From a virus (lineage: Duplodnaviria; Heunggongvirae; Uroviricota; Caudoviricetes): DNA of 42,750 bases. Where the stretch lies: positions 1-42,750 of IMG/VR virus record IMGVR_UViG_2703718822_000008; one strand, given 5' to 3'. Below, in pieces: positions 2,403 to 19,250 of this stretch. The stretch's first letter is position 1; the number at the start of each line of letters is the position of its first letter. The position numbers were made by a program, and so were the translations under genes. The notes under the pieces were generated by a model that had not been told where the DNA came from, searched no databases, and was given only the letters and a program-made list of their open reading frames with translations.

Positions 2403-2428
2403 ACATCCATACAATATCTCTGATAGAA

Positions 2429-2458
2429 CAAAGCCTCGCGCTGGATCGCAAGGCTTTG
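2429..2458. terminator. Hairpin between the convergent integrase and tailspike genes (possible bidirectional terminator)
   Basis: caaagcct-N14-aggctttg inverted repeat in the 190-bp gap between two convergent genes; no strong U-run, so weak. Confidence 0.3.
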
Positions 2459-2592
2459 TGTGTCTCAGTTTAACATTATCATTAAACTAAACAAATAAGG
2501 AACTAACAAATAAATGCATAGTGCACTTTATTTCGTATATCATTTCGAAAATAAAGACAAAATAGTTGCAGTAAATGTTGATGTACCATTGT

Positions 2593-4920
2593 TCATAATA
2601 CAAGTTTTACCACCTGAGTATCCAGATATGGTTTGCGAAACTGGACTTCCTGTTGTTGGGAAAATGGTGATTTCACCCCCCCCTTCAATACTCTAACTTT
2701 GCCCGTAACATCAACCGATGAACTTGAAACAGACGTGAGAGATCCGTTGGTCATTGTATAAAAGTTTATAGTTCCTGTTGCTGTTCTGCTTACACCACAT
2801 CCTGATTTTTGCTTCTGTTTATAGTTAAACAATACCAGCAGGCCAACAGGCATTGACTCAAGCTCAACTGCTGTAGACTGGTAGGTCTTACTGCCGTTGC
2901 TCATGTCAGGAGCCTCATCGTCTGGATCAGAAAAATTATACCCAAGAGTTAAATCATTAACCGTGGCATTATTCCCTGTTATTCCTTTGACTTGATTAAC
3001 ACTTAACGGTATGTAATTAAACCCTGCAAAAAGCGGTGTTAACTTTTCTCTAAATAAAAGGCCTGGTGGGTATACTACCGAAGGTGTACCATCATATGTC
3101 ACTGAGATAATATTAAGTCCCTTTTTAAGGGTTCCAATGCGCGTTGTTTGTTTGCCTGTAAATGATGTTAGCCCATTGCTGGCAACTTTACCTGATAGAT
3201 AAGAAGAGTTCCTGATGTCATTGAGAATGACATTGAACTGGTTAACACGATTTGATGAAGTATAAGTTGGGTTATATGGCTCAAATAATGTTACAGAGAT
3301 ATCGCTTGTATCACTCCATACAAAATACCGACAAATAACATTTTCATTTGAAGGCGTAATCCTTCCCCATCCACCAAGCGCATCAAGATAATCACCTCCA
3401 CTTAATATCGAAATTGATGGGTAGTATCTTGTATTTGAAGGGTATCCAATACCAATAAATGAAAGTTGAGTAGTAGGGATTAGGTTCTTATTTTTTACAG
3501 CTGTATAAACGCGCTCTTTTAATACCTCTTTTGCAGCATAAGCACCGATGTATGCATGACCTATCGTTGATGGATGGCTCTGGTCAAAGACAGTGCCGCC
3601 ATCACGTTTGGCAACATCAGATATGGAGTACGCGCCAATATCTGCATAAGCGTCAGTTGTGGCAACTGACAGATCCAGAAACTCAACTTTTTGAAAAAGA
3701 CGCTCGATACGCTTCTTAATGGCTGCCTCCAGAAAAGCCTTTGGCGCATCGTTATTATTTACAGTAACAAAGCATATCGGACAACCATATCCCCATGATT
3801 TTCTAATCAACTTTTCAAACTCATGAAAATACGCTTCAAATCCTATTGTTGGAAGTATTCCATTGTCATTAAAACCAAGGCTTATAAAAAGAACATCAGG
3901 AGCTTTTTTTCCATACGCAGCATTCTGGAAAAATCCATAGTCGAAGTTTTCATAACCCCAACCTGTGGCTAAAGCCTTTCCTGAAGAGGCACAGTTGTAT
4001 CCTTTAAAAATATTTGTTGTACTGTCAGATAGCATGTTCAGGCAATCAGTGAAGATCCTGAACCAGGAATACTTTCCGCCATTGAGGTTGTGGTTGTGGT
4101 TGGTTGAATTAAGATTACCATCGCTATCAGTTGGGTTTGGTTCCCATCCAGAACTATAGGCTCCATCCGTTATAGAATCACCAATGATACCTACATGGCA
4201 ATCTTCTACAGTTGATGGGTAACCCTGCTTATTTGCAAATTTAGCAATTGTTCCAAGAGCAGTAAAATCAGGGCCATTGTTAGATAGACCAACATCAAAA
4301 ACATGCTCATTACCCCATGGATCTCTTGTAAGTATTTTCCCTTCACCTTTTAACTTTGTCACATCATCTTCAGGAAGAAGATTGCATCTTACCGTTATAT
4401 TCCTTGGTATATATACATTTCCTTCTTGTCCAAAAATAATATCTCTGTTATCAGTGTTCAAATCTGAAACAAAACTGGTAACTATTTTTCCATTATTAAT
4501 CTCATCAAGCGAGTCACCAACAGTTGACGTTGCATAACCAACAATGTATGCACCATTTGCAGATGAAAGTTGATAACTAAATTGATCTGGATCGTACTTC
4601 AGCACATTCGGGAAATAGAACTGCTGCACACCATACGCATCATATACAGCCATAGAATGGCCTTGCACAGTTACGAACTTGGCAATCTGCCCGTTATATA
4701 CCGGGTAACCAGCAGCGTTAATGATGATTGGTTGCGAAACAGGAACGTGAGAACCGTCTTCGTTTTCCACATAAACCTGAATTTGGTTTTCAGGATTTAC
4801 CGGGTCCGTGTCAATTTTACCAATATAAATTTTTCCATTAGCTACGGCTTTAAAAGAACGAGCCATAGTGAAGAGTTGCGAAGGCATTCCTATAACCACA
4901 TTTGGTGTTATATTAGTCAT
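2593..4920 (-). CDS. Tailspike protein: P22 gp9-type head-binding N-terminal domain with an SGNH/GDSL esterase-like central domain
   Basis: From the ATG at 4920 the N-terminus MTNITPNVV...[38 protein letters not shown] closely matches the recalled P22 tailspike head-binding domain; SGNH blocks GDSITDG (nt 4174-4182), GFNDNG and DQSHP follow; last gene of the virion module; the track ORF extends upstream to 5022 but the homology start is 4920. Confidence 0.8.
2676..2683 (-). repeat. G8 homopolymer (C8 on the plus strand) inside the 3' end of the tailspike coding sequence
   Basis: Direct reading: tttcaccccccccttc; lies 27 codons before the annotated stop. Confidence 0.9.
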
Positions 4921-5111
4921 GTGTGCAATCCTATTAGACATGCTTGATAAAGAAGATAATGGAGTTAATGCTACAAATGACGCTATTGATTTGAAAAATG
5001 ATCTTCTATTCATATTAAACACACATTAATGCAGAAAATTTGCATTAATGTAAGCAAAAAGCTCAATCAACTCCATAGCAATTTAATTTTTAACTGTAAT
5101 TTACATCTACA

Positions 5112-7505
5112 TTACCATGACAACGCATCAGACTTGGCACCCTGAGTCAGGGCGTTAATGACCTTTTGCGCCTGCTGCATGGCTTTCTCAAACGCTGTTG
5201 ATCCGCGTGGGGTATTTGCCATTCGGAGCATTGCATTTCTGAATGGTTCGCTCTCATAGGCGCGAGTAAGAAGTCCGTAGCTTACCGCTGCGCCAGTTGT
5301 CGCCGGGTTCATTGCCGTCCCGTACCCGATAATGAACGGGATGGTTTGCTGCCCTGTTGGTGTTGTTACTGCCGCTTTTGCAGCCTGTTGCGTGGATTGC
5401 AGGTAGTTTTTCAATCCTTTCAGATAAGCAGCATCCTGACCTTTAAATGTGATGCCAGTCTGGTTTTGCAGGATGTTAAGCTGTCGAAGGAACTGGTCAG
5501 GGGAACCACCTGATTTCTCCATCGCCTTTCCAATGATGCCATTGCGCATTTGCGCCCTGCCAACACGACCAACTGAGTTATACAGTGTCTTAATTTCAGA
5601 TTTGTTCTTGCTGAATAGCATGTTATTGACAACTTCCGGCGTCAGATCGCCTTTCATGAGAACATTCTTCAGCCTGGTATTCTTGAGTTTCGCCGCTTCG
5701 TCAGCGTAGACGGCATTGGCCTGCTGATATTTACGGAGAGTATCGTTGCCAAGATTCTGACCAATGGCACCATTGATATCGTCGGTCATTGCCTTGTAAA
5801 CGCGCTGAATGGCAGCATCGGAACGGTTTGGTAACACTGGTCGCTCCCCCTTCACGTCCATTCTGAACTGGCTGCGCAGATCTCTTAATTGCTTCAAATC
5901 CAGATTTACCGGACCATCAGGACCAGCATTGCGAACAAGCTCATCACGATAGGACTGAAGTTTTGAAATAGTCTCGTTATCAGCAACCTTACCAAGCTTC
6001 TGCAGGTTAGATATTTCTGTATCAATCTGCTGAATTGCTCGCGCAGGCTGAATGTTTACTCCAGCCATAGCATTCTGAACCTGCTCCAGTCGATTACCGG
6101 CGGCACGACGAATTCCTGATGTTTTCGCTTTAAGGCTGTCAATAACAACCGCTGGATCATACTCACCGAATTTATCGGCAAATCTCTGCACCAACTGGCT
6201 TCTCGCTTCCTGTTGCGTTGCTCTCATTCCGCTTGTGCCAGCCAGGGGGATATTTTCTGCTGTAGTCTGCGCCATTTTCCCGACGCGGGAAGTAGGCTGT
6301 AACAGGTCTGTGGTGTGCAGAGGAACTCCTTCACGCTCTGCAAACCTGATAGCCTGTTGAGCTTCTGGTGCTATCGAACCACGAACACCACGATAAGCAG
6401 CACCTAATCCACGCCCGGCAGCGTTAATAGCACCGCCAGCCAGCACACCAACGCCTAAATCGGTGGCGAGTGCTTCCGCATCATCTTTCGCACTGTTTGC
6501 AGCAAGTGATCCAACTGCGTTTTCTGCTAGAAGGCGAGTTGCCCCCTGAGCAATTCGACCAGCAAGTGTTGGTGCCTGTGTTGCCGCTCTCTCAACGCCA
6601 GCAGGAGTGAGGTAAGGCAATGCTTCAGCAAATACCCTTCCCTCTGTCGTTTGTGGAGTCAGCGCGCCTTGCTGAAGGCCAAAGTCCTGCTCTAATCCCT
6701 GCGTTGTTACTCGTGGTGCTGGTTGATATGTACCATCGCCAATGCCGAGTTTACCGCCAGCCCAAGCCGCCGCGCTTGTTACAGCATCAGTGAGTTCAGC
6801 AGGTATGTTCGCTACGTTGATTCCTGCCTGTAGTAAGCCGCGCCCGGTTTCAGCAAGTCCATTACCAAGGTCAGACATTATTCCGCCTTGCTGCTGAACA
6901 GGTTTCGGTGCGACAGAACTTACGGGTTGAGGTGGCTGCTGACTGGCTGCCTGCTGCTCAATCTGAGCAAATGGATTATTTGGGTCTGACTGCACGCCTG
7001 ATGCCGATACTTGTTCGGATGACTGTGCTTCCAGTTGTGCAAACGGGTTGTTAGGGTCTTGCTGAGGATGTACCTTTGCAGAGGTGGCGCGCTGTTCGAC
7101 TGTTGAGTCTGTCACCGGGTCACCCGCCCATTGAGCAAAGCGATCATCAACGTAACCGCGGCCTTCAGGTCCTGGCGTATATTCACCACGCTTTGCCTTC
7201 ATAACGTTGCCGGGACCGTCGTGATAAGCCTGAAGAGCGTCACGCCAGTTACCAAACTGCTGGTACATCTTTGCCAGATAGCGCGCGCCAGCGTCAGCCT
7301 GATATTCGGGGTTTTGCATTTGCTCATCGGTATAACCCATATCACGCCATGTCCCAGGCATGACCTGAGTCAATCCTACAGCCCCGGCGGAGCTTACTGC
7401 GGCAGGGTTGTAAGAAGACTCCTTGGCACCCAGTGCAGTCATCAACCCTTCTGGCACACCGTAACGTGCGCCAGCCTGCTCTAACAAATCACGGTAATTA
7501 GCCAT
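5112..7505 (-). CDS. Ejection/internal virion protein (P22 gp16 position) with N-terminal lytic transglycosylase (SLT) domain
   Basis: 797-aa ORF; N-terminus ...ALGAKESSYNPAAVSSAGAVGLTQVMPGTW... resembles the SLT catalytic region; located between the gp20-like gene and the tailspike. Confidence 0.6.
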   Translation of the reverse strand: MANYRDLLEQAGARYGVPEGLMTALGAKESSYNPAAVSSAGAVGLTQVMPGTWRDMGYTDEQMQNPEYQADAGARYLAKMYQQFGNWRDALQAYHDGPGNVMKAKRGEYTPGPEGRGYVDDRFAQWAGDPVTDSTVEQRATSAKVHPQQDPNNPFAQLEAQSSEQVSASGVQSDPNNPFAQIEQQAASQQPPQPVSSVAPKPVQQQGGIMSDLGNGLAETGRGLLQAGINVANIPAELTDAVTSAAAWAGGKLGIGDGTYQPAPRVTTQGLEQDFGLQQGALTPQTTEGRVFAEALPYLTPAGVERAATQAPTLAGRIAQGATRLLAENAVGSLAANSAKDDAEALATDLGVGVLAGGAINAAGRGLGAAYRGVRGSIAPEAQQAIRFAEREGVPLHTTDLLQPTSRVGKMAQTTAENIPLAGTSGMRATQQEARSQLVQRFADKFGEYDPAVVIDSLKAKTSGIRRAAGNRLEQVQNAMAGVNIQPARAIQQIDTEISNLQKLGKVADNETISKLQSYRDELVRNAGPDGPVNLDLKQLRDLRSQFRMDVKGERPVLPNRSDAAIQRVYKAMTDDINGAIGQNLGNDTLRKYQQANAVYADEAAKLKNTRLKNVLMKGDLTPEVVNNMLFSKNKSEIKTLYNSVGRVGRAQMRNGIIGKAMEKSGGSPDQFLRQLNILQNQTGITFKGQDAAYLKGLKNYLQSTQQAAKAAVTTPTGQQTIPFIIGYGTAMNPATTGAAVSYGLLTRAYESEPFRNAMLRMANTPRGSTAFEKAMQQAQKVINALTQGAKSDALSW

Positions 7506-8837
7506 TTACTGCCCCAAAGATGGAAGATATCCGTAGCGATTAATGAAGTCGATTGACAGCTCGGGGTGCTGCTTCAGGTAATCTATAGAAGCCTGAGGCG
7601 CTTCCACTCGCTTGATACCGTTTTGCTGAACGTACTTACCAACCGCCTCATTACGCTTCTGGTTGAGCGTGTTCAGGATGACGCCAGCGTTGCGACGAAA
7701 GGACTCCTCGCTCTGCGAGTTCTGCAGCGAACCAACAGCCTGGTCGAGCTTTTTGCCCTCGGCATCAGAAAGTGCGCCCATGCCTCGCATGGCCTGAACC
7801 GCTGTCAGGTATGCTTGTGATTTAAAGGTATCAAGTCGTGCCTGAGTGTCTGCAGCCTGTGAGCCTGGAACGTTGGGGATTACTCCACGTAAGCCTGTAA
7901 TGCTCTTAAGTGAAGGAGAACTAACGATATCGTTCAGAGTGAACATGCTGGTTGTGAGGGTGTTGATGCCGTCTTTGTAGCCATCATTTAGCGCTTGCTG
8001 CTTCTGCTGCAACTGCTGGTTGTTGGCTGCTATGCGGCTCTGTATTTCCTGGCGCTTCAGGTCGTTAGTTTCTGCTGATAGCATCCGGTCAAGGCGCTTA
8101 TTTTCGTTGTTAATGCGGTTTGTTTCTGCGTCCAGATTAATGCGCTGCTGACCTAAATTCGCCTGGATATCTTGCCCGCGCATTGTGATTGCCTGATTCC
8201 GAGCGGCGGTTTGCGAATCCAGATCCTGACCGCGCATGGTAACCTGGCGACCCTGCATTTTATCCTGTAGGTCAAAGTATTTTTCGGGTCCGAGACTGTT
8301 CATCCCCAGGTGATCGACAAATTCGCCGAACTGCCGCGGGTTCTGTTGGTACATCTGAGCGACGTCCTGAGGATTAACGCCAACACGAGCTAACTCACCG
8401 GCGTTGTTTTGCAGCCATGATTGCATTGCTTCTGGAGACGATGACGCAAGGCGTGCGCCAGCCGCTAAGGTGCCGATAGAATTACGCTGATCTTCATCAA
8501 TGAATCCCATGCCTTTACGAACGGATTCAATCTGTTCTGGATATTGAGTAGCCAACTGACGCAAAGCACCGCGATCACCAGACGCATAAGCATTAGCGTA
8601 TGCCTGCTGAAATTCTTTCTGCCGCTGAGCCTGCTTTTCCTGCTGAAACACCCCCGCAATACCTGAAAGGCCTTGCAAAGCAGTCAGCCCAACATTGTTA
8701 GCGCCTGAACGCTCAATATCATTGTTCTGCCTGATAAACTGAAGCGTATTGCCGATGTCATTTACGCTCGGAGCGTTTGAGTTGACGCCGCCGATACCAG
8801 CTAACAATCCGCCGTTTGTTCCTTGCCAAGTAGCCAT
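7506..8837 (-). CDS. Ejection protein, P22 gp20-like
   Basis: 443-aa ORF in the syntenic position between gp7-like and gp16-like genes; Q/N/A-rich. Confidence 0.55.
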   Translation of the reverse strand: MATWQGTNGGLLAGIGGVNSNAPSVNDIGNTLQFIRQNNDIERSGANNVGLTALQGLSGIAGVFQQEKQAQRQKEFQQAYANAYASGDRGALRQLATQYPEQIESVRKGMGFIDEDQRNSIGTLAAGARLASSSPEAMQSWLQNNAGELARVGVNPQDVAQMYQQNPRQFGEFVDHLGMNSLGPEKYFDLQDKMQGRQVTMRGQDLDSQTAARNQAITMRGQDIQANLGQQRINLDAETNRINNENKRLDRMLSAETNDLKRQEIQSRIAANNQQLQQKQQALNDGYKDGINTLTTSMFTLNDIVSSPSLKSITGLRGVIPNVPGSQAADTQARLDTFKSQAYLTAVQAMRGMGALSDAEGKKLDQAVGSLQNSQSEESFRRNAGVILNTLNQKRNEAVGKYVQQNGIKRVEAPQASIDYLKQHPELSIDFINRYGYLPSLGQ

Positions 8838-8846
8838 GATTACCCC

Positions 8847-9539
8847 TTAAAACAACGAGCCAAGCAATCCGATACCAGCACCAATGCCAGCGCCCCAAGG
8901 CGTTGATGTTCCCAAAAGACTGGCAAGACCTGCACCGGCAATCGCACCAGACGTTCCGCCACTAATTGCAGTCTGAAGACTTGATGGTTTATTGGCATTA
9001 GCAGCGGCAAGAGCTGCGCTTTGCTGTGCAATGCTGCTCATGTTGTTGGCGTACGTCTGCCCGGCGTTTGCCTGACCTTGCAGCGCACCAAGCCCAACGT
9101 TTGCCAGATTGTTGTAATTGCTCATCTGGTTTGATAACCAAGACTGACCGAGTGTCGGCGCGATCGTAGCCAGTTGATTGCTTGTGGCTGTCGAACCAAG
9201 TCCGCCAGTCGCTTCCGCAGCAGCAAGACTCTGGTAACGAGCCTGACCTGCAAGGTCTTTATACTGCTGAGAATTGTAATACTGATTAAGTGCCTGCCCC
9301 TGACCTTCTAAACTGGAAAGATTCTGAAGCTGGTTAACATACTGCTCCGCAAGCGGCGTGAACGGAGCAAGGTTTTTCATGATCGTCTGCCACTGCTGAT
9401 TTTGCAGGTCTGCGGCATACTTCTGAGCTTCTGCGGCATACTTTGCGCTTTTATCAGAACTGCCACCTTTCCCGCCTTTTTCAGGGCAATAAGGTTCCTC
9501 GCCGCGCAGTTTTCTGCCCAGCTTAAATGCATATAACAT
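8847..9539 (-). CDS. Ejection protein, P22 gp7-like
   Basis: 230-aa ORF (P22 gp7 is about 229 aa); synteny; Gly/Ala-rich C-terminus. Confidence 0.55.
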   Translation of the reverse strand: MLYAFKLGRKLRGEEPYCPEKGGKGGSSDKSAKYAAEAQKYAADLQNQQWQTIMKNLAPFTPLAEQYVNQLQNLSSLEGQGQALNQYYNSQQYKDLAGQARYQSLAAAEATGGLGSTATSNQLATIAPTLGQSWLSNQMSNYNNLANVGLGALQGQANAGQTYANNMSSIAQQSAALAAANANKPSSLQTAISGGTSGAIAGAGLASLLGTSTPWGAGIGAGIGLLGSLF

Positions 9540-9541
9540 GG

Positions 9542-9997
9542 CTATCTCCCGTGATTCAGGAAGTCGATTAGTTCTTCGCGTGTGGCGCTGTAAAACGTCA
9601 CGTCATCCACGCCTTTGAAGTATTTTTTGATGGTTCCTACACGATTAAGGCCAATCATTGCGCAGTACATCTGACCGTGGCGGAATTTGCGTGCAGCGAA
9701 CGATGTGACGCACTGAACGGTGGTGTTAGTCAGAATGTATCGCCAGAAAGCCAGCCCGATTTCCTTGCTGAATCCGCGAATCTCTGGCAGGTACATGGCG
9801 TGGCAATCAAAGGTCAGCGGCTGAATCTCCTGATAGTAAACAATTCCGCCGAACTGCCCGTGCACGTTAACCTCAAAGTAACGGCATTCATGTTTGTAGT
9901 CATATCCATCACCGTTGTTGCTCCCGGCGATAATGTCAGGGTGATTTCCTACTGCTTCGATCAGGTCGATGTTTCGCGTTGGTTTGAATGTAATCAT
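9542..9997 (-). CDS. Head-completion/ejection-associated protein in the P22 gp14 position
   Basis: 151-aa ORF between the tail needle and gp7-like genes; assigned by synteny only. Confidence 0.45.
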   Translation of the reverse strand: MITFKPTRNIDLIEAVGNHPDIIAGSNNGDGYDYKHECRYFEVNVHGQFGGIVYYQEIQPLTFDCHAMYLPEIRGFSKEIGLAFWRYILTNTTVQCVTSFAARKFRHGQMYCAMIGLNRVGTIKKYFKGVDDVTFYSATREELIDFLNHGR

Positions 9998-10698
9998 CAG
10001 TCAATCAGCCCATGTAATCTAAGTGCTGTTTCAAGCGCCAGAATACGCTGCCGCGCCTGCTGCAAACCTGTAGCGATAGCTGCGACTTCGGATTGTGTGT
10101 ACGTAGTGCCGACCGTGTATGACTGGTTAGCGTTGAATGAGCCAAGAAGTGGTGTGCCTGTGGCCGCTGTCCATCCGGTCTGCCTTGCTCCAACGACCTG
10201 AATTCCATCAACTGAATATGATGTTTTTACATCCAGCGGTGACGCAAGAGACTGCGATTCTGTTACGGTTTTCGATACGTAATCACTCTTAATGCCAGAG
10301 ACATCGTTTTCTACGTCATCCAGTCTTTGGTCAACAGTGACCAGATGCGCCTGAATATCGATAACCTCATCCAGCAAGTAATCAACATCGCTACGCAGTA
10401 CGACTATCTTCCCTTCGGCGGTTGTTAACCTGACCTCAAGGAGATTTATCGCTTTTGTGTTTGCGGTGATTCTTGCGTCGTGATCAGCCAGTTCGACATC
10501 CTGTTCATCGTTTTTCACCTGTGCATCGTAAGCGCCCTGACCAGCCTGATTTGCCTTCCCGGCAATTGCGCCGACATCAGCCCCCTGATTAATGACATAC
10601 AACAGGTAAGACTGGCTGAAGATATTGCGTGGAAGGATTGATGTATCGAGCCGCGTCGCCTGCACAATAACAGGAGTGTTGAGATTCGAATCCGCCAT
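9997..10698 (-). CDS. Tail needle protein, P22 gp26-like
   Basis: 233 aa; N-terminus [36 protein letters not shown]... and C-terminus ...[25 protein letters not shown] match recalled P22 gp26. Confidence 0.85.
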
Positions 10699-12116
10699 TA
10701 CTCAATCCTTATCTGAGCGCCAGAAAGAGTTACAGGTGACTTCGTGATAACGCGCAATTTGAAGCCAACATTTTTCCTGATTCGCCCGACACGCTTCCAC
10801 AAAACGCGTTTGTCGTAAACGAACGGTTCATTCTGCTCAATCATCTGCTCACGACCATAATTTATGCCGTCAGTGGTTGCAGAGAGGAACAGGCGGTCGG
10901 CGTACTGCGCAACTCCAGTTGACGATTCAACTTCAAGGTCGAAAACTCTGGCGTTATCCGCTTTGAACAACGGAGTAAACAGCAGGTGTTCCTGTTGCTT
11001 GTCGTACTGGCTGCTGATATCGAACTGCAATTTTCCTGTCATCGATTCAAGCTTATCGCCGCACGTTATCTGATTGCCTTCGTAAATGAAGTCGATAGCG
11101 CGGTACACATCGTCATACAGGCCTGTTTTCAGCACACACCATTGCGGACCATTGGCACTTGAAGATGCGTCGTACACCAGAACATGGCGCGGAAGGTGGA
11201 TAATCAGCAACTCATGCGCATCAAATCGCAGCGATTCCATCACGCCATCAGCCAGTTCATCAGCAGTGTAGGAGCGGAGGATTTTCTCAATGCTCGCGCT
11301 GGCAATTGGTGACACCTGACCGGAGCCGATGATATACACAGACGGCGCACCCGTTGCCGGATTGCTGATGAACGCATACGAATCAGCAAACGGCGTTTTG
11401 CAGTAAGTCCCGGCGATGCCTTTTTGCACCATCAGTGATGGCTGTGCGACATACAAAGCAGCACCAACGGTGGTTGCGCCAGTCAGGGAGAAATATTCAA
11501 TAGTCGATGAACCAAAGCAGACGATGAAGTCTCGCCATGTCCCGATACCGATGATGCCGTCCGGCTGAGACTCGGCACGATATTGTGCGCTGTAACGGTC
11601 AGGATGCGATTCGTCTTCAAGGTCAGTGATAAACCATGAATCAGTGCCGTCTTTTGACCACGCATAACGCCCACGTAATCGCGTAATGTCGCGGACTGAG
11701 CCTAACTCATACTGCGTGAATCCGCTGTCTGTAGGCCAGTTTGAGACGGTTTTAACCGTGCCATCATAGCGATACTCGACCAGTTTCCCGTTAACGCCTA
11801 CCGCCTGTGATGTCCGACCATGCGCCATTGATACACGACTACTTCCGGCGACGTCACCGACTTCACTTTCCCCTTTGTAGAGCTTGCCACCACACACGCG
11901 ATAAACAGCACTCTGCGCCATGTTGTACTCGACGCCTCGAGATATACCGTTCACATCAGAACGTTTGGCAATGCCCGGGAATGAGCGAAGATATCCGCTG
12001 CTGTTCAGGATTTCTTTAGGTGTAGCCAGCATATTCACTGGCAGATAGTCGATATAGTCAGCGTTTCGAAAGTCTTTGCCGACACCTTTCATAAGCGGAA
12101 GTTGCTGAATCGGCAT
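10698..12116 (-). CDS. Head-completion (tail hub) protein, P22 gp10-like
   Basis: 472 aa; [49 protein letters not shown]... nearly identical to recalled P22 gp10. Confidence 0.85.
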
Positions 12117-12594
12117 TTATTCGCTCCCGTTATCACAAGGTTCCTTTCGGTGGAAGTAATTCCAACCGTTCCACTTCGCCAACTGATTACCGCTACCAAC
12201 AGGCATACGGTTTGGATAACCGGACTTACATTTAGCGGCTTTTGCTCTGTCCATTGCAGACAGTTTGACGAGTCGCTCTTTCCCGTATCTGGCAGTGGTT
12301 ATAAGTTTTGCTGACGCTTCCAGCGCATAATCCGGAGCAATGCGGCAGGCAAGGTTGAAAATGACGGCATTGATAGCGTTATTTGATAAACCGTGCTCAT
12401 CGCCCGGATCCGGAGCGACATCTGCATCAGCAAAAATGTAGCCAACGTTGATACCAGGTGACGCATCACCGCCAAGCCATTCAGCCATCATCATTTCAAG
12501 GTCGTTGACGCCGTCTTCCATGGACTGAGGTTCGACATCGGTTAACGTGGCATTTGATGCCACACCGAGCTTACGTAATGCCGCAAGAACTAAA

Positions 12595-12617
<23 letters not shown>
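12117..12617 (-). CDS. Head-completion protein, P22 gp4-like
   Basis: From the ATG at 12617: [33 protein letters not shown]... matches the recalled P22 gp4 start MQIKTKGDLV; the track ORF extends to 12710 through the hexanucleotide repeat, probably spuriously. Confidence 0.75.
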
Positions 12618-12849
<232 letters not shown>

Positions 12850-12862
12850 GCTTGTCTCCAGA

Positions 12863-12884
12863 TAAAAAGGGAGCCGAAGCTCCC
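12863..12884 (-). terminator. Rho-independent terminator downstream of the coat gene
   Basis: Minus-strand gggagcttcggctccc hairpin followed by ttttt, immediately after the coat stop. Confidence 0.65.
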
Positions 12885-12892
12885 TCTGGTTA

Positions 12893-14188
12893 TCACGCAG
12901 TCTGGTTAGGCAGACCAACACCAATTGCCTCTGGTCGTACAGCACATGCTGAATACCACACAGCAATACGGCACTTACCAGACAGAGTGTTGATATCACC
13001 CTGCGTTGCGAAGATGCCGTTAACACCAATGCCAGGAATGCTGAAGGAAGACGTTTTCATACCAGCAAACAGTTCATGGGTTACCGGGATCGGCTGAGAC
13101 AGCAGGCGGATTGAGTCATCAGCCCAGAACACGTTAGCGGTGGTTGTTGCCACGTTCAGAACGTTTACCGGAGTGGTATCAGCAAGAGAGGTGTTTACGT
13201 TAGCGTAAGCCTTCTCTTCTTTTGTCAGTGACGCGTCATCCAGCGCAATCGGCTTCGGCGTGATTTCGATGTGAGTACCATCGATCACACGGGTGATTGA
13301 GAAAGTCGCATCATCAGTCAGCACGTTCTTCGCCATCTGAGACAGGAATTTCACACCAGTGAAGCTGATTTTGTCGCCGCGCTTAAATCCGGTGGTGGAG
13401 GATACGGTCACCGTTGCAACACGGTTATCGACGTTCTCTTTGTTACCATCGGTATCAAGGGTGTATGCCTGCGGCTTAAACTTCTGCGCACCAGAAACAG
13501 TTACACCAGTAGCGGTTGACTTGGTAACTGCCGGAAGTTTCGGTGAGCGAAGAATTTCATCAAAGCCAGCAATCTGACGCTGAATAGTACCGTTGCGATA
13601 CGTGTCTTCAGGAACGCGCCCGAAGATGTCACCATCTACCAGGTTGCGGCCTGCTTTGCGGTAATCGTCAGGGTTCAGGAAGTAACTGATTCCCATGTCG
13701 CGGTTGAGTTCTCGGGAGAACATCAGGCGCTCTGCATCAGACACAAAATCCCAGCCAGACAGGCCAGTAGATGGACCAATTGCGCGGGTATCGTGAACAA
13801 CAAGCGAGCCCATTTCAGTTGCCTGTTTGGCAATCGCTGACTCAATGTTATTCGCCAGTTTTTTGGCGGATGCCTGAATGCGGCGACGGTAAGAACGCTC
13901 ATCACGCAGGTCATCTGCACGAAGCTCGAAGAAATCGTTATCCGGATCGCCCATGTTGCATTTCACGGAGAGTTCCAGAATCCCGGTTGCGTTGCCAGTT
14001 AAATCCCAGCCAGTCTGGGTTGGCGCTTCCTGCTCAACAGGCATCCACACGGTGTTGCTTGAACGTTGCATGGATTCTGCCGGAGGGGTGTATTTTGTCA
14101 CTTTGGACGCCATTGGCGTCAGGTTCTGGACGGTTTCGATGATTTCATCCAGAGCATACGTGACCAGTTGACCTTCATTTAATGCCAT
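12893..14188 (-). CDS. Major coat protein, P22 gp5-like
   Basis: 431 aa (P22 coat is about 430 aa); syntenic after the scaffold gene. Confidence 0.8.
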
Positions 14189-15099
14189 TATCGAATTCCT
14201 TTATTCAGTTGCGCCTTGAGCTTGCGGTACGTCTCTACATCCCCTTTGTTTGCTGCCGCTTCCATCTGCTTTTCAATCGCAGAGATATTTGCAGCAACAG
14301 CGTGTCCCTGAATGGGTTCATCAGGTAACGGGGCTTCTGAAACAGGCTTGGCTCGAGGCTTGAGAGTTAAACGTTCTGACAGTCGAGTGAGTTCAATCAG
14401 CGCGGATTGCCCGTCCATCGCCAGCAACTGGCGCGTCTTCTCAGGATTAGCACCAAGGTGATACATGAGAGCAGCGGATTTCTCCGGGAAGAGGCGCATG
14501 ATGTCGGCACCGACTGCTGGCGGCACCAGTTGCATGAATGCATCCTCTTTCTCCTGATAGTCAGGGATATTGAGCTTTTCCGCTGCGTCGTAGTGCTTAC
14601 GGGCTGCCTCGACGTATTGCGCTGATTGCTGGGTGAACTCCTGAGTTTTGCGACCCTGCTCGGCGACAGCCTGGCTTCGTGCGTCCATAGCCTTGATCTG
14701 CCATTCACTGTTTGCCTGCTGGAAGGCAGCCAGTGCGCGGCTCTGGTCATAGTCGTACTTAGCCAACGCATCTTCGGAAAGATAATCGTTAGGGTCTGGT
14801 TGTTTTGGTAACTCAGGGTTCACCCGCAGGTGCTCCGGCAACTCCCCACGCTTAACCGCTTCCATCTGCTGCTCAAGCTCACGCTGGCGTTTGCGTTCGA
14901 TGCGGCGACGGGCAAATTCAGCATTAGTTGCCGGGTCTTGTTTTGGTTTCTCATCGTCTTTCAGGACAATCTCGAAGCCTTCTTCCTGACCTGCGTTGTC
15001 GTTGGCATTATCGACAACTAAGCCATCAGCAGATGCCGCTGCATGATTGCCGGGCAGGGTTAATTCTTCAGAAGCCTGAATGTCGGTGGTTTGGTCCAT
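14188..15099 (-). CDS. Scaffolding protein, P22 gp8-like
   Basis: 303 aa, charged/helical; similar to the recalled P22 scaffold (303 aa); synteny. Confidence 0.8.
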
Positions 15100-15112
15100 G
15101 GTTAACTCTCTC

Positions 15113-17278
15113 TTATTGAGGTGTCTCGGCTACTCCGCCGGAGGGGATTTGAACTTGACGCATAAGATTCGCGAAATCCATGCGTTGTGAATGAGTCTGG
15201 TCTGCATCTTTAAGAAGCAGCTCAGCGTTAGCACGAGCATCTTTGCTGCGCTGTTGCTGGAATTGACCTACGAGCTTGAGGTACTCACGCAGTTCTGCCT
15301 GCTTGTCGAGGTCCATATTGTTGAAGATTTCCGCAATCTTCGCGGCGTTGAGTTGGTTTTGGGCTTCAACCTTGGCGGCTTCAACCTGAATCTGCGCCTG
15401 TTGGTTCTCTGCCTTGAGCAATTCAGCCTGACCTTGCAGAAGGATACCCTGCGCCTGAATTTGCTCTGCTGATGGCTGCTGCGGCTGCTGTTGAGCCTGC
15501 TGTACCATCTCCATCTCTTCAGGTGTTTCTGGTTTCTTCAGCCCCATCATCACCAGTTGCTTGTTCGCGTACTCTCGCATCATCTCGACGCCTTTACCGT
15601 CAAGCAGCGTGAAGTATTGCAGCATCAGCATCTGGAACTCTGGAGTACCTTGTGGAACCTTGGTGAGTAACTCCTGAATCTCTGCGCGGTTCTGTTCCTT
15701 CATACTCTGGAAGGATGGTCCAACGTCTGTATAGCACTCATAGCGACCGCGAATGTCGTTGAGTGTGACCACATTGCCGGACTGGTAATCTACAACTTGC
15801 GCGTAGAGTTGAACGTCTTTCTCGCTTCCATCTTCAAGTGTCAGCGTTACATGACGAGGAACGTCATAAATATCATTGACCATTGATGCATAAATCTCGC
15901 CATCGCGTCGCATTGCGGTAGCCAGGTTATCCTGAAACACGTATGTCTCAAGGTCTGCCCGCATGTTCAGTTGATTGACGGTATCGAAAGCGACCTGACC
16001 GTTTGCTGCCTGCGCATCCACGCCAAGACTAGCCACCTCTTTCACTGCGTTGGTGGCAGCCTCAAGCATGTAAGCGTTGGCTTGCGGCACTTCAGGGTTT
16101 TCCATGTAGGAGATTGGACCAATCGGCAGGTCGTTACCGTTTTCATCGGTCCTGTTCTGCAGATAGTACGGATAGTCATCATTTCCACCGTACATGTATT
16201 CGTAGCCTTCGATTTGCTCAGGGAAGAAGGTCGGTTTCTTCTTCGGTGAACGAGCAACAATATCGGCGTTGAATGACATGATCATGTTACGAAGGCGCTG
16301 ACCGTCTTTCGTCAGCCTTACCACTCCTTCGTAGCACTCCTTGTCACCAGCGAATGACCATTCGCCATACACTGGAACGATTGGAATATGCTCTCCGGCT
16401 ATCTTCTCGCGGTCTTTCAGTATCTGCGTGCAGGTGATGATCGACTTATACACACGCCGACGCTTGACCTTACGCTCTGCTACCTTAATGAATCCACGAT
16501 TAGCCAGGTCATCGATGACGTCTTTGATATCCTGCTGGTAATAGCTGACCGGCTCACCTGTCAGCGGGTCGCGGTAGATGAAGACCTTCTCTTTCTTCTC
16601 TTCGACCTCGTAATACTCAGCGACGTAGACGACATCATTCGATACCCACGGAAACAGCCATGTATCGTTTGGATTCTGGAAAGATGGCAAGGTGTCCGGA
16701 TCAATACCGTAATCCTCTGCGAACTCTTTCCAGCCATTGCGTGACAAAGCGTTAATCACCGTGCAGTGCTTAGCGTCGCTCTTATCCATCTGCTTGCTGT
16801 TGGCGTCCCATATGACGTGTGAGCAGGCTTCATGGATTGGAAGGCGTCGGATTACCTGATTGTTGCTTGTTGGGTCGTTGTCTTCGTACTGGGTGACCAG
16901 ACGCCATGCACCAACGCCGGACTCTATCTGCTCACGAACTCCAACGTTAACGGCAATCTTTGCCGTGTTATGGCGCATATCGGTACGATACATTCCCATC
17001 AGCACATCGGCAGCATCAGGATTAGCACCGTCTTTTGGTCGGAAGAGAACGTCAATAGGGTTCCGGCGCATCTCTGCGACCAACTTCCTGACAACCGGGC
17101 GAACAACATCGAATTGTCCGCGATATTGCAGGGTAGTGTAGTTTGATAGCCAGTCATCCCATTGCGACACTCGGCTAAAATACAGGTCATTTGTCGCCTC
17201 GGTTCTGGCTTCATCGCTCGCCATCCAGTCCGCGTCAAACTTACACAGAATGGAATTGAGTCTGTTTTCGTCGGCCAT
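15113..17278 (-). CDS. Portal protein, P22 gp1-like
   Basis: 721 aa; [18 protein letters not shown]...[30 protein letters not shown] closely matches the recalled P22 portal. Confidence 0.9.
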
Positions 17279-18778
17279 TTAAGTTCTCCGTGCGATGGGC
17301 CTGATTGGGGCTGGTATCTTTTTCTCTTTTGGTTTTTTGATGTCGCGCATCATTTTTGCGAAGCGGCGCATCATGTATGCATAGCGAACGGCTGAGAGAA
17401 CGTCGTCGTTAAGCTTGACGATTTTCCCGTTTTCATCACGGTGATAGAGGCGGAACTCCTCAAAGAATGGCTCACAGGTGTTGAATACTTTGAAGCGACC
17501 GTCGAGCATCATGTCTCGCAATTCAGTGATGCCAGGCTCAACAGCATTACCGCCATCAGGCCATGTCGCATGCTCCTGCAACATCATAAAACCAGCATCT
17601 GCATACTGCCCTTTGAGCTGCTCACCGCCGCCCTTCTCGTGCTGGTTTCCGTCATGAGGCCATGCAGTTGGCACTTTATGCGCCCATGATTTAACGGCTC
17701 CCCACGCCTGAACAGCTGTCTTTTCTTTCGCCTTCCACACGCGTGAAACGTAGATTGTGTCTGCGTCCTTATCCCACCAAAGCTGAACCTGTGCCTGTGG
17801 GTGATCCCATCCGAAATCCATCCCACCAATTACGTAGAAGTGATCAGGACACTCGAACGGCTGACACTTAATCGTCTCTTCCGGTATCTGGAAGATTCGC
17901 CCGCTACCCATCGTAGGAATACCGCGAGCACGCGCCTCTCTCTCATGCTCTGGATAGGATGCGATGATTTGCTCTTTCTGTTCGTCTGTGTAGTGCTCAG
18001 CGTCATAGATGGTCATGTTGACCACTTTCTGCGACTTGCTGGGATTCTTCAGGAACTTGGTAACAACGTCAGACATCCCCATCAGCGGGGTAAACGTCAG
18101 AATTGAGAATTGCCCGTATTTGTTGGTACGGGTAAGCCCTTCGCCATAAATGCTGTATGGTGGCTCTTCGTCAAACCACACGCCGTGGATTGTGTCACCC
18201 TGCCAGCGAGCGCGGCCTTGCGAGTATGGTTTGAAGTAGCAGATTGAAATGCCATCTTCAACGCCATCAGCCGTGTGATGCTTAACCAGAAGGTGATCAA
18301 CAAGGTTCGGAAAGAAAGGAGACTTCTTCCAGCTAATGATGTCTTCTTTCGGTATGGAACCGTAGCCAGGTTCACCATTCTCTTCGATACGACCGCACAG
18401 GATGCGTTGAGTCGTTTTGGTTACAGTCTCGTTTGTCTCGCCACCAATCCAGAAGACAACAGGCTCATAGAAACGCTTACCTTTCCACTCACCGCCATAT
18501 TTACCATCAGCAGGATAGCCTTTTGTGCCCGGATAACGCCCGGTAAGGTGAAACGCGACTTCAGCAGCACCAGTAAATGACTTACCAAGCTGGTTACCAG
18601 CCATAAAACAGCGCTCTGGATAGTCATGCCCGGCGTCGATGAACTCACGCTGTTTGCTGTATGGCGTAAATTCATATAGCAGGTGTGTGTTCCGGTAGTT
18701 CTCTTCTTCTTCGAGTAGCTCGAGCAACTCGATTTGCTCTTCGTCGCTCAGGTTATCAAGAATCGCGTCCAGTTCCAC
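17279..18778 (-). CDS. Terminase large subunit, P22 gp2-like
   Basis: 499 aa (same length as P22 gp2); overlaps the small terminase 3' end as in P22. Confidence 0.85.
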
Positions 18779-19250
18779 GGTTGAATAGCTCCTTGATACG
18801 AGAGCGCCGCTTATCGCGATCTCCCTTATCAGGTGTCACGTCTTCAACTTGCGACTGCTCTTTGAGGCCCAAATCACGGGCGATGATGTTAGCGTTGAGA
18901 AGGTCAGCGGCTGCGCCAGAGAATTTCTGGTCGTAGATGACCTGCTCTGCTCGCGTAACGACTTCAGATAAATCTTCTCGCAGGCGATATGTGCGCCATG
19001 TTTCAAGCGTCACATCAATGAACAGAGTGAGGCCGGTAATGGTCATCGCTCGCATCTTGGCGATAGGCTCTTGTATCACTTCACCCTGATACGAGAACGC
19101 CTTCATCTCCCATAGCGGGTTAGCTTCCACCCACTCGAAGTATTCACAACAAGCAGCCCACAGCGCCTCAGGCGATTCGAATTTAGGATTTCGCCCATGA
19201 CTACTGCGGGCCTCCCAAAATCGGTTGCCCTTTGGTGCTGCCATATTCAT
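18756..19250 (-). CDS. Terminase small subunit, P22 gp3-like
   Basis: [49 protein letters not shown]... essentially identical to recalled P22 gp3; the start may be the ATG at 19244 (MAAPKG) rather than 19250. Confidence 0.85.
18952..18977 (-). other. pac-like packaging site within the small terminase gene
   Basis: Minus strand reads gaagatttatctgaagtcgttacgcg, matching my recollection of the P22 pac sequence inside gene 3. Confidence 0.45.

Follow-up and report, generated by a model that had tools for sequence, protein, structure and literature searches.

Introduction

In the tailspike gene of a P22-like Escherichia coli prophage, a run of eight guanines stands shortly ahead of the stop codon at which the gene as read ends, and a second long frame lies open beyond it in another register. 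The question that this locus raises is whether the run is a genetic switch, a site of recoding, the scene of a mutation or the site of an assembly error. A first, sequence-only reading had left two answers side by side, namely a phase-variable C-terminus and a homopolymer length error in the assembly. Here, I conclude that the lesion is an ordinary frameshift, being either a recent mutation or an assembly error, and not a genetic switch.

The prophage and its tailspike gene

The window, i.e. the whole stretch of 42,750 bases that was analysed, is part of contig LOJB01000006.1 of the draft assembly GCA_001607365.1. It carries a P22-like E. coli prophage integrated at the tRNA-Arg gene argW, beside yfdC and intS, in which the tailspike gene closes a P22-type late operon (terminase, portal, scaffold, coat, gp4, gp10, needle and ejection proteins). 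The layout of its open reading frames is collinear, at about 97% identity, with that of a P22-like prophage annotated in E. coli strain G3, which occupies the same argW/intS site.

The tailspike is encoded on the minus strand, within a long open reading frame (5022..2593) that spans the G8 run and would give 809 amino acids if read from its GTG start. Translation very probably begins with the ATG at 4920 (MTNITPNVV...), from which the coding sequence as read (2593..4920) runs from ATG 4920..4918 to a premature TGA at 2595..2593 and yields the 775 residues of WP_244498550.1. The in-frame extension upstream of the MTNITP start (window 4921-5022, minus strand) is probably an untranslated leader; it includes the string RRSFFK, which I take to resemble a twin-arginine export signal motif, and a start upstream of MTNITP was chosen by the gene caller in another assembly (P0030, 824 aa).

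That the gene is a tailspike, as had been read from the sequence at the outset, is borne out by a complete P22-type head-binding, i.e. particle-attachment, domain at its N-terminus (4582..4920, residues 1-113; PF09008 Head_binding, positions 1-113 of 113, E 9.3e-65). It is followed by a G7C gp63.1-type domain 3 (4291..4482, residues 147-210; PF21562, E 4.8e-26), by an SGNH/GDSL esterase domain (3544..4191, residues about 244-459), by a G7C-type galactose-binding-like domain (3052..3450, residues 491-623; PF21988, E 6.9e-9) and by a terminal beta-domain (2543..2871, residues about 684-793 of the intact protein), all on the minus strand, the last being cut at residue 749 by the frameshift. The esterase assignment draws on PF00657, which scores 23.7 bits against a cutoff of 23.6 (PF13472 staying under its own), on putative catalytic motifs read in the translation, GDSITDG for the GDS block and DQSHP for the D-x-x-H block, and on a match to a solved structure: residues 5-356 of an intact relative (P0001) match residues 302-664 of the 4QNL chain in sequence (E 9e-45). 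The deposition title of 4QNL is 'Tail fiber protein', and I take the entry to be the structure of phage G7C gp63.1, a protein that is referred to elsewhere as an esterase tailspike (Prokhorov et al. 2017, as cited in PMC10408124).

The window tailspike is thus predicted to combine two parts, a head-binding adaptor of the P22 type and an SGNH esterase receptor-binding module like that of G7C gp63.1. Domain 3, the esterase and the galactose-binding-like domain are common to it and to G7C gp63.1, whereas its N-terminal adaptor is of the P22 head-binding type, unlike that of gp63.1, and the last ~170 residues of the window-type tailspike have no sequence match to 4QNL. The phages differ as well, the window phage being a temperate P22-like prophage and G7C being of the lytic type.

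Two palindromic elements flank the gene. The short gap between the end of the ejection-protein gene (5112) and the tailspike contains a perfect inverted repeat (11-nt arms, 7-nt spacer; ACATTAATGCA ... TGCATTAATGT, window 5023-5051), which could be an operator or a transcript hairpin. On the other side, intS converges on the tailspike gene, and the interval from its stop (2402) to the natural tailspike stop (2540) holds a GC-rich hairpin (AAAGCCTTGCG / CGCGAGGCTTT, loop ATCCAG, window 2430-2457). The hairpin has the look of a terminator used by both genes, and it is placed at the end of the restored gene and not at the end of the gene as read. A consensus terminator scan did not call this hairpin, because no run of T follows it.

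Module exchange among relatives

An esterase receptor-binding module that is nearly identical to that of the window tailspike from about residue 200 onwards is also carried by a quite different N-terminal adaptor (MTVSTEVDHNEYTGNGV..., 914 aa, P0011-P0021; L006 5750-8545), and many E. coli genomes encode tailspikes of this 914-aa type. Two variants, of nine sequences each, exist for the last ~20 residues, one of them ending in ...MMNTGVSTFTLPLLSVFSKG. This amounts to module exchange between phage types.

Other differences concern the neighbourhood of the gene. The O-antigen glucosylation genes gtrABC are absent between intS and the tailspike (window 2403-2540), while at this place the G3 prophage (L010 8585-11542) holds yfdG, yfdH and a glucosyltransferase gene, together with a different receptor-binding part of the tailspike; tailspike and serotype-conversion cassette seem to be exchanged together. 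In the E. coli genome GCA_025875205.1 (L001 1579-2400) genes with peptidase S11, GyrI-like and FUSC domains, presumably dacD, sbmC and yeeA, come directly after an identical tailspike 3' end and the final ~60 bases of intS, where a complete intS and argW would otherwise stand; the integrase may be truncated there, or the chromosomal context may be another one.

Many database copies of the tailspike are 'partial' and sit at contig ends (clusters 2 and 3). A pair of fragments sharing the locus-tag prefix ACUY32 (P0022 and P0026), the one N-terminal and of the 914-aa type, the other C-terminal and of the P22 type, come from one assembly. This suggests that short-read assemblies are broken in some genomes by the presence of two prophages whose receptor-binding modules are nearly the same.

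Two reading frames at the G8 run

The homopolymer (GGGGGGGG, 2676..2683 on the minus strand, C8 on the plus strand) contributes to the K-G-G codons in AAG GGG GGG G.. and is neither longer nor shorter than in intact relatives; it is the sole run of G or C of at least six bases in the 42,750-base window. The minus strand from 2691 to 2668 reads GTA TTG AAG GGG GGG GTG AAA TCA. An out-of-frame tail of 27 codons (2596..2676) follows in the frame as read, up to the TGA at 2595..2593, while the displaced true C-terminal coding segment (2540..2674) encodes 44 residues and ends on the natural stop TGA at 2542..2540.

Everything that the sequence-only reading had described here holds. Re-reading of the minus strand places the G8 at 2676-2683 and 27 codons ahead of the stop; the surroundings are AT-rich, the tailspike gene having a GC content of 39% against 47.6% for the window; and an extra guanine opens the long frame, since simulated G9, as well as G6, joins the two frames and gives 45 residues followed by the stop at 2542..2540, whereas one guanine fewer brings an immediate TGA (simulated G7, and likewise G10). 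The argument that such a coincidence is unlikely by chance does not survive, for G8 runs are expected 0.46 times per window and at least one occurs in 25 of 100 dinucleotide-preserving shuffles, and off-frame open stretches of 40-65 codons are found several times in both non-coding frames of the tailspike gene. It is homology, and not statistics, that makes the second frame meaningful.

The homologue search used as its query the frame-restored C-terminal 315 residues, and cluster look-ups enlarged the set. It returned one E. coli protein that is 99% identical across the full query, as well as Enterobacter and other E. coli homologues at 42-76% identity. Among the sequences fetched that reach the site, 18 distinct close E. 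coli relatives run KGGDEITIF in the alternative frame to their own stop, and 5 distant homologues (40-56% identical) retain that frame too, e.g. VIKGGDNITVYPTSGS... in Enterobacter; none of these 23 continues the as-read tail frame, and among the sequences compared the tail beginning VKSPF... occurs in the window's own product only. The homologues are single uninterrupted open reading frames that end at the position matching window 2540. A comparison of homologues had been put forward as a way to learn which C-terminus is conserved, and it favours the peptide of the alternative frame, which is kept throughout, over the annotated tail, which bears no likeness to any of them; the alternative frame is the genuine conserved C-terminus.

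A protein of 809 residues (P0031), equal in length to the window frame read from GTG, was considered as a second frameshifted copy and dismissed, its N-terminal extension being different and its C-terminus intact. At the DNA level, the 850 bases of the tailspike 3' end found no match by Megablast in 5,426 complete E. coli genomes and none by blastn in 50,697 phage records; the receptor-binding module is rare in those collections.

Position of the lesion

The natural sequence in the homologues is K-G-G-D-E, while an extra guanine in the window would yield K-G-G-G-E, and for this reason the DNA itself was compared. Against the contig of GCA_025875205.1 (L001), 1762 of 1776 positions are identical and there is a single gap, L001 reading GAAGGGGGGGGATGAAATC where the window reads GAAGGGGGGGG-TGAAATC. 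A gapped-pattern scan that admitted any variant of the tract brought three further independent sources, namely two viral-collection contigs and one metagenome contig, and gave no match in a collection of one genome per species. The other relatives compared with the window (L006, L007, L008 and L009) are 94.8-98.3% identical to it, and the same missing A is the sole gap.

All four independent DNA relatives (L001, L006, L007 and L008/L009) thus have G8 followed by A (AAG GGG GGG GAT GAA), whereas the window has G8 followed by T. As the run is the same in the window and in its relatives, the lesion is the loss of the flanking A: on the minus strand the G at 2676, the last of the run, is followed at once by the T at 2675, one A being absent, where relatives read GGGGGGGG-A-TGAAATC, and the Asp codon GAT is thereby destroyed. 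A two-step route, in which an A-to-G change makes G9 and a G9-to-G8 contraction follows, would leave the same final sequence, yet a single deletion is the more parsimonious route, given that an A occupies this position in every relative. Of the alternatives first entertained, then, the frameshift stands and an assembly frameshift is still a live explanation; the slipped-strand switch and the change of tract length fall, the G8 being shared by the window and four of four relatives.

When the Asp is restored, the resulting 793-residue protein equals EPB3663678.1 (P0010), from another E. coli, residue for residue in the protein-level comparison, and therefore nothing else in the tailspike has decayed. 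The frameshifted 775-aa product, WP_244498550.1, is a singleton known from one contig, the window's own source.

Predicted consequences for the tailspike

An AlphaFold model of the intact relative P0001, built on an alignment of eight sequences, has a mean pLDDT of 52; it is too poor overall for fold searches and its confident terminal domain alone was used. This domain (residues 416-520, pLDDT 75-90) is modelled as all-beta with about ten strands, four of them (482-487, 493-496, 504-509 and 515-519) beyond the frameshift point, which is Asp481 of P0001 and residue 749 of the full protein. In the window these four are replaced by 27 unrelated residues. The model suggests that the terminal domain, and hence tailspike folding or assembly, is probably disrupted; a real deletion would most likely leave the tailspike misfolded or without function, and so the particles non-infectious.

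Origin of the frameshift

Two accounts of an ordinary frameshift have to be weighed, and the evidence bears on both. According to the one, which I hold to have about an even chance, prophage DNA has undergone a real and very recent one-base deletion. According to the other, somewhat less probable but a serious contender, the DNA of the strain reads G8 followed by A (or G9) and encodes an intact 793-aa tailspike, the draft consensus having lost one base at the edge of the homopolymer. An artefact would be in keeping with the lesion abutting the window's only long G/C run, where residual assembly errors cluster, with an allele that is recorded in one draft assembly only, and with displaced 45 codons that are otherwise undamaged; the protein, the frameshift aside, matches a recorded intact allele at 100% identity, as an artefact would also give. 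Yet the length of the run is correct and the base lost is a non-repeated A, which does not look like a classical homopolymer-length miscall, and a 151.7-kb contig in a WGS draft of 2016 suggests short reads, with which consensus indels would be uncommon. Nor is the assembly rich in such defects: over ~15 kb aligned with the ~97% identical G3 prophage (4289-19247, covering the tailspike N-terminus and the structural genes) there are only two indels, both of a single base, at 12116 and 12864. One falls in the overlap of the gp4 stop and the gp10 start (TTATT vs TTTATT), the other is an A5/A6 difference between genes, and both appear harmless. On balance, whether the lesion is present in the DNA, and not in the assembly alone, I would put at even odds.

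On the account of a real deletion, prophage DNA would have lost the A of the GAT (Asp) codon directly after the G8, with misincorporation and realignment at the homopolymer edge as the likely mechanism. A base lost beside a run is compatible with this model of frameshift mutagenesis. Translation would then leave the conserved frame past K-G-G, gain 27 unrelated residues and stop early, with the last 45 residues lost, and the G8 would make its neighbourhood mutation-prone without acting as a length switch.

Hidden frameshifts were also considered for overlapping pairs of open reading frames in the early region (26453/27295, 36435/36980, 37628/37924 and 39046/39585). The members of each pair match different families and are therefore separate genes, not split ones; no further broken-looking gene was found in the window.

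Switching and recoding

Runs of eight guanines are generally mutable, and a slipped-strand contingency switch, in which the G tract would vary in length at high frequency and toggle a functional tailspike C-terminus, could draw on this: G9 or G6 restores the long frame and G7 or G10 stops immediately, and a slip from G8 to G9 would give a near-native protein in which Asp749 is replaced by Gly. I nevertheless regard such a switch as very improbable. Four independent relatives, at 94.8-99.2% identity, share the G8 of the window, so that the length of the tract does not vary; the lone OFF allele arose from the loss of the flanking A and not from a change in repeat number, all 18 of the fetched close relatives that reach the site being in the ON state; the run itself is absent in Enterobacter homologues, where K-G-G-D is written AAA GGA GGA GAT; and G8 runs are, as stated above, expected by chance 0.46 times per window. 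None of the three defining features examined for a slipped-strand contingency locus is present at this site.

A rescue at the level of expression, in which a -1 ribosomal slip on G_GG.G_GG.G or slippage of RNA polymerase on the G8 yields some full-length tailspike, has if anything a still smaller probability. Formally the zero-frame AAG GGG GGG is an X_XXZ_ZZN heptamer at which a -1 shift enters the conserved frame, and there is a precedent in the herpesvirus thymidine kinase, where low-level compensatory frameshifting takes place on an indel-bearing G run (PMC5009743). Against this, the homologues are single open reading frames and their -1 frame stops immediately (GGA TGA, as seen in L001), and a two-frame design is therefore not conserved. 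No unusual RNA structure was found downstream, the 116-nt fold having -25.8 kcal/mol and z = -0.73, with 42 of 200 shuffles folding as well or better. The motifs found to be efficient for frameshifting in E. coli do not include G_GG.G_GG.G, and its sibling G_GG.G_GG.U reaches 0.018% without a stimulator, which is the lowest value of that systematic study (PMC4066793); where bacterial transcriptional slippage is described, it concerns stretches of nine A or T and not G8 (PMC5009743). Given distant homologues free of the run, no downstream RNA structure and an immediate -1 stop in relatives, neither phase variation nor programmed recoding is supported.

A variant of the real-deletion account would make the frameshifted allele partly functional or readily revertible through the G8, by a rare slip from G8 to G9 in DNA or mRNA or by a -1 ribosomal slip, again with Asp749 turned into Gly. 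I consider it about as improbable as the switch. Were it true, the prophage would be mostly OFF for infectious particles but able to flip back, a bacterial-virus counterpart of the 'savior indel' of the herpesvirus thymidine kinase.

Implications

Along the line of the ordinary frameshift, to which I now return, the 775-aa RefSeq record WP_244498550.1 represents the translation of a frameshifted gene: the 27 residues at its end are out of frame and without homologues, and the true C-terminus is encoded at 2540-2674. The entry ought to be handled as a pseudogene or a suspect consensus, and it is unsuitable as a reference for the classification of tailspikes, receptor-binding proteins or host range; the practical value of the finding is mainly that of an annotation correction. 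If the deletion is real, the prophage has been caught at the first step of inactivation, with a single-base lesion in its tailspike, and since the rest of the prophage looks intact this stage would be a very early one. Frameshift inactivation of a prophage gene is a common and well-understood event, and no new mechanism is involved.

Comparison with known systems

Phase-variable contingency loci are exemplified by the poly-G tracts in surface genes of Neisseria and Haemophilus. The tailspike locus resembles them in having a poly-G tract within a coding region, such that a change in length by +1 or -1 shifts the frame, but differs from them in that there is no length polymorphism among relatives, the tract is not kept in homologues and the OFF state came about without any change in length.

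The G7 'savior indel' of the herpesvirus thymidine kinase is alike in being an indel at a G run of a viral gene, where a rare net frameshift could give some full-length product (PMC5009743). That system has direct experimental support and a selective rationale (PMC5009743), whereas for the window tailspike the frequency of slipping is predicted to be negligible from bacterial motif data (PMC4066793).

To sum up, the closest likeness is to an ordinary frameshift pseudogene, or an artefact of the same form, in a prophage structural gene, with a single-base indel beside a homopolymer, a premature stop, a tail devoid of homologues and an intact allele in relatives. Nothing substantial sets the tailspike apart from such pseudogenes, of which it would be a very young case, with zero other amino-acid differences from the intact allele.
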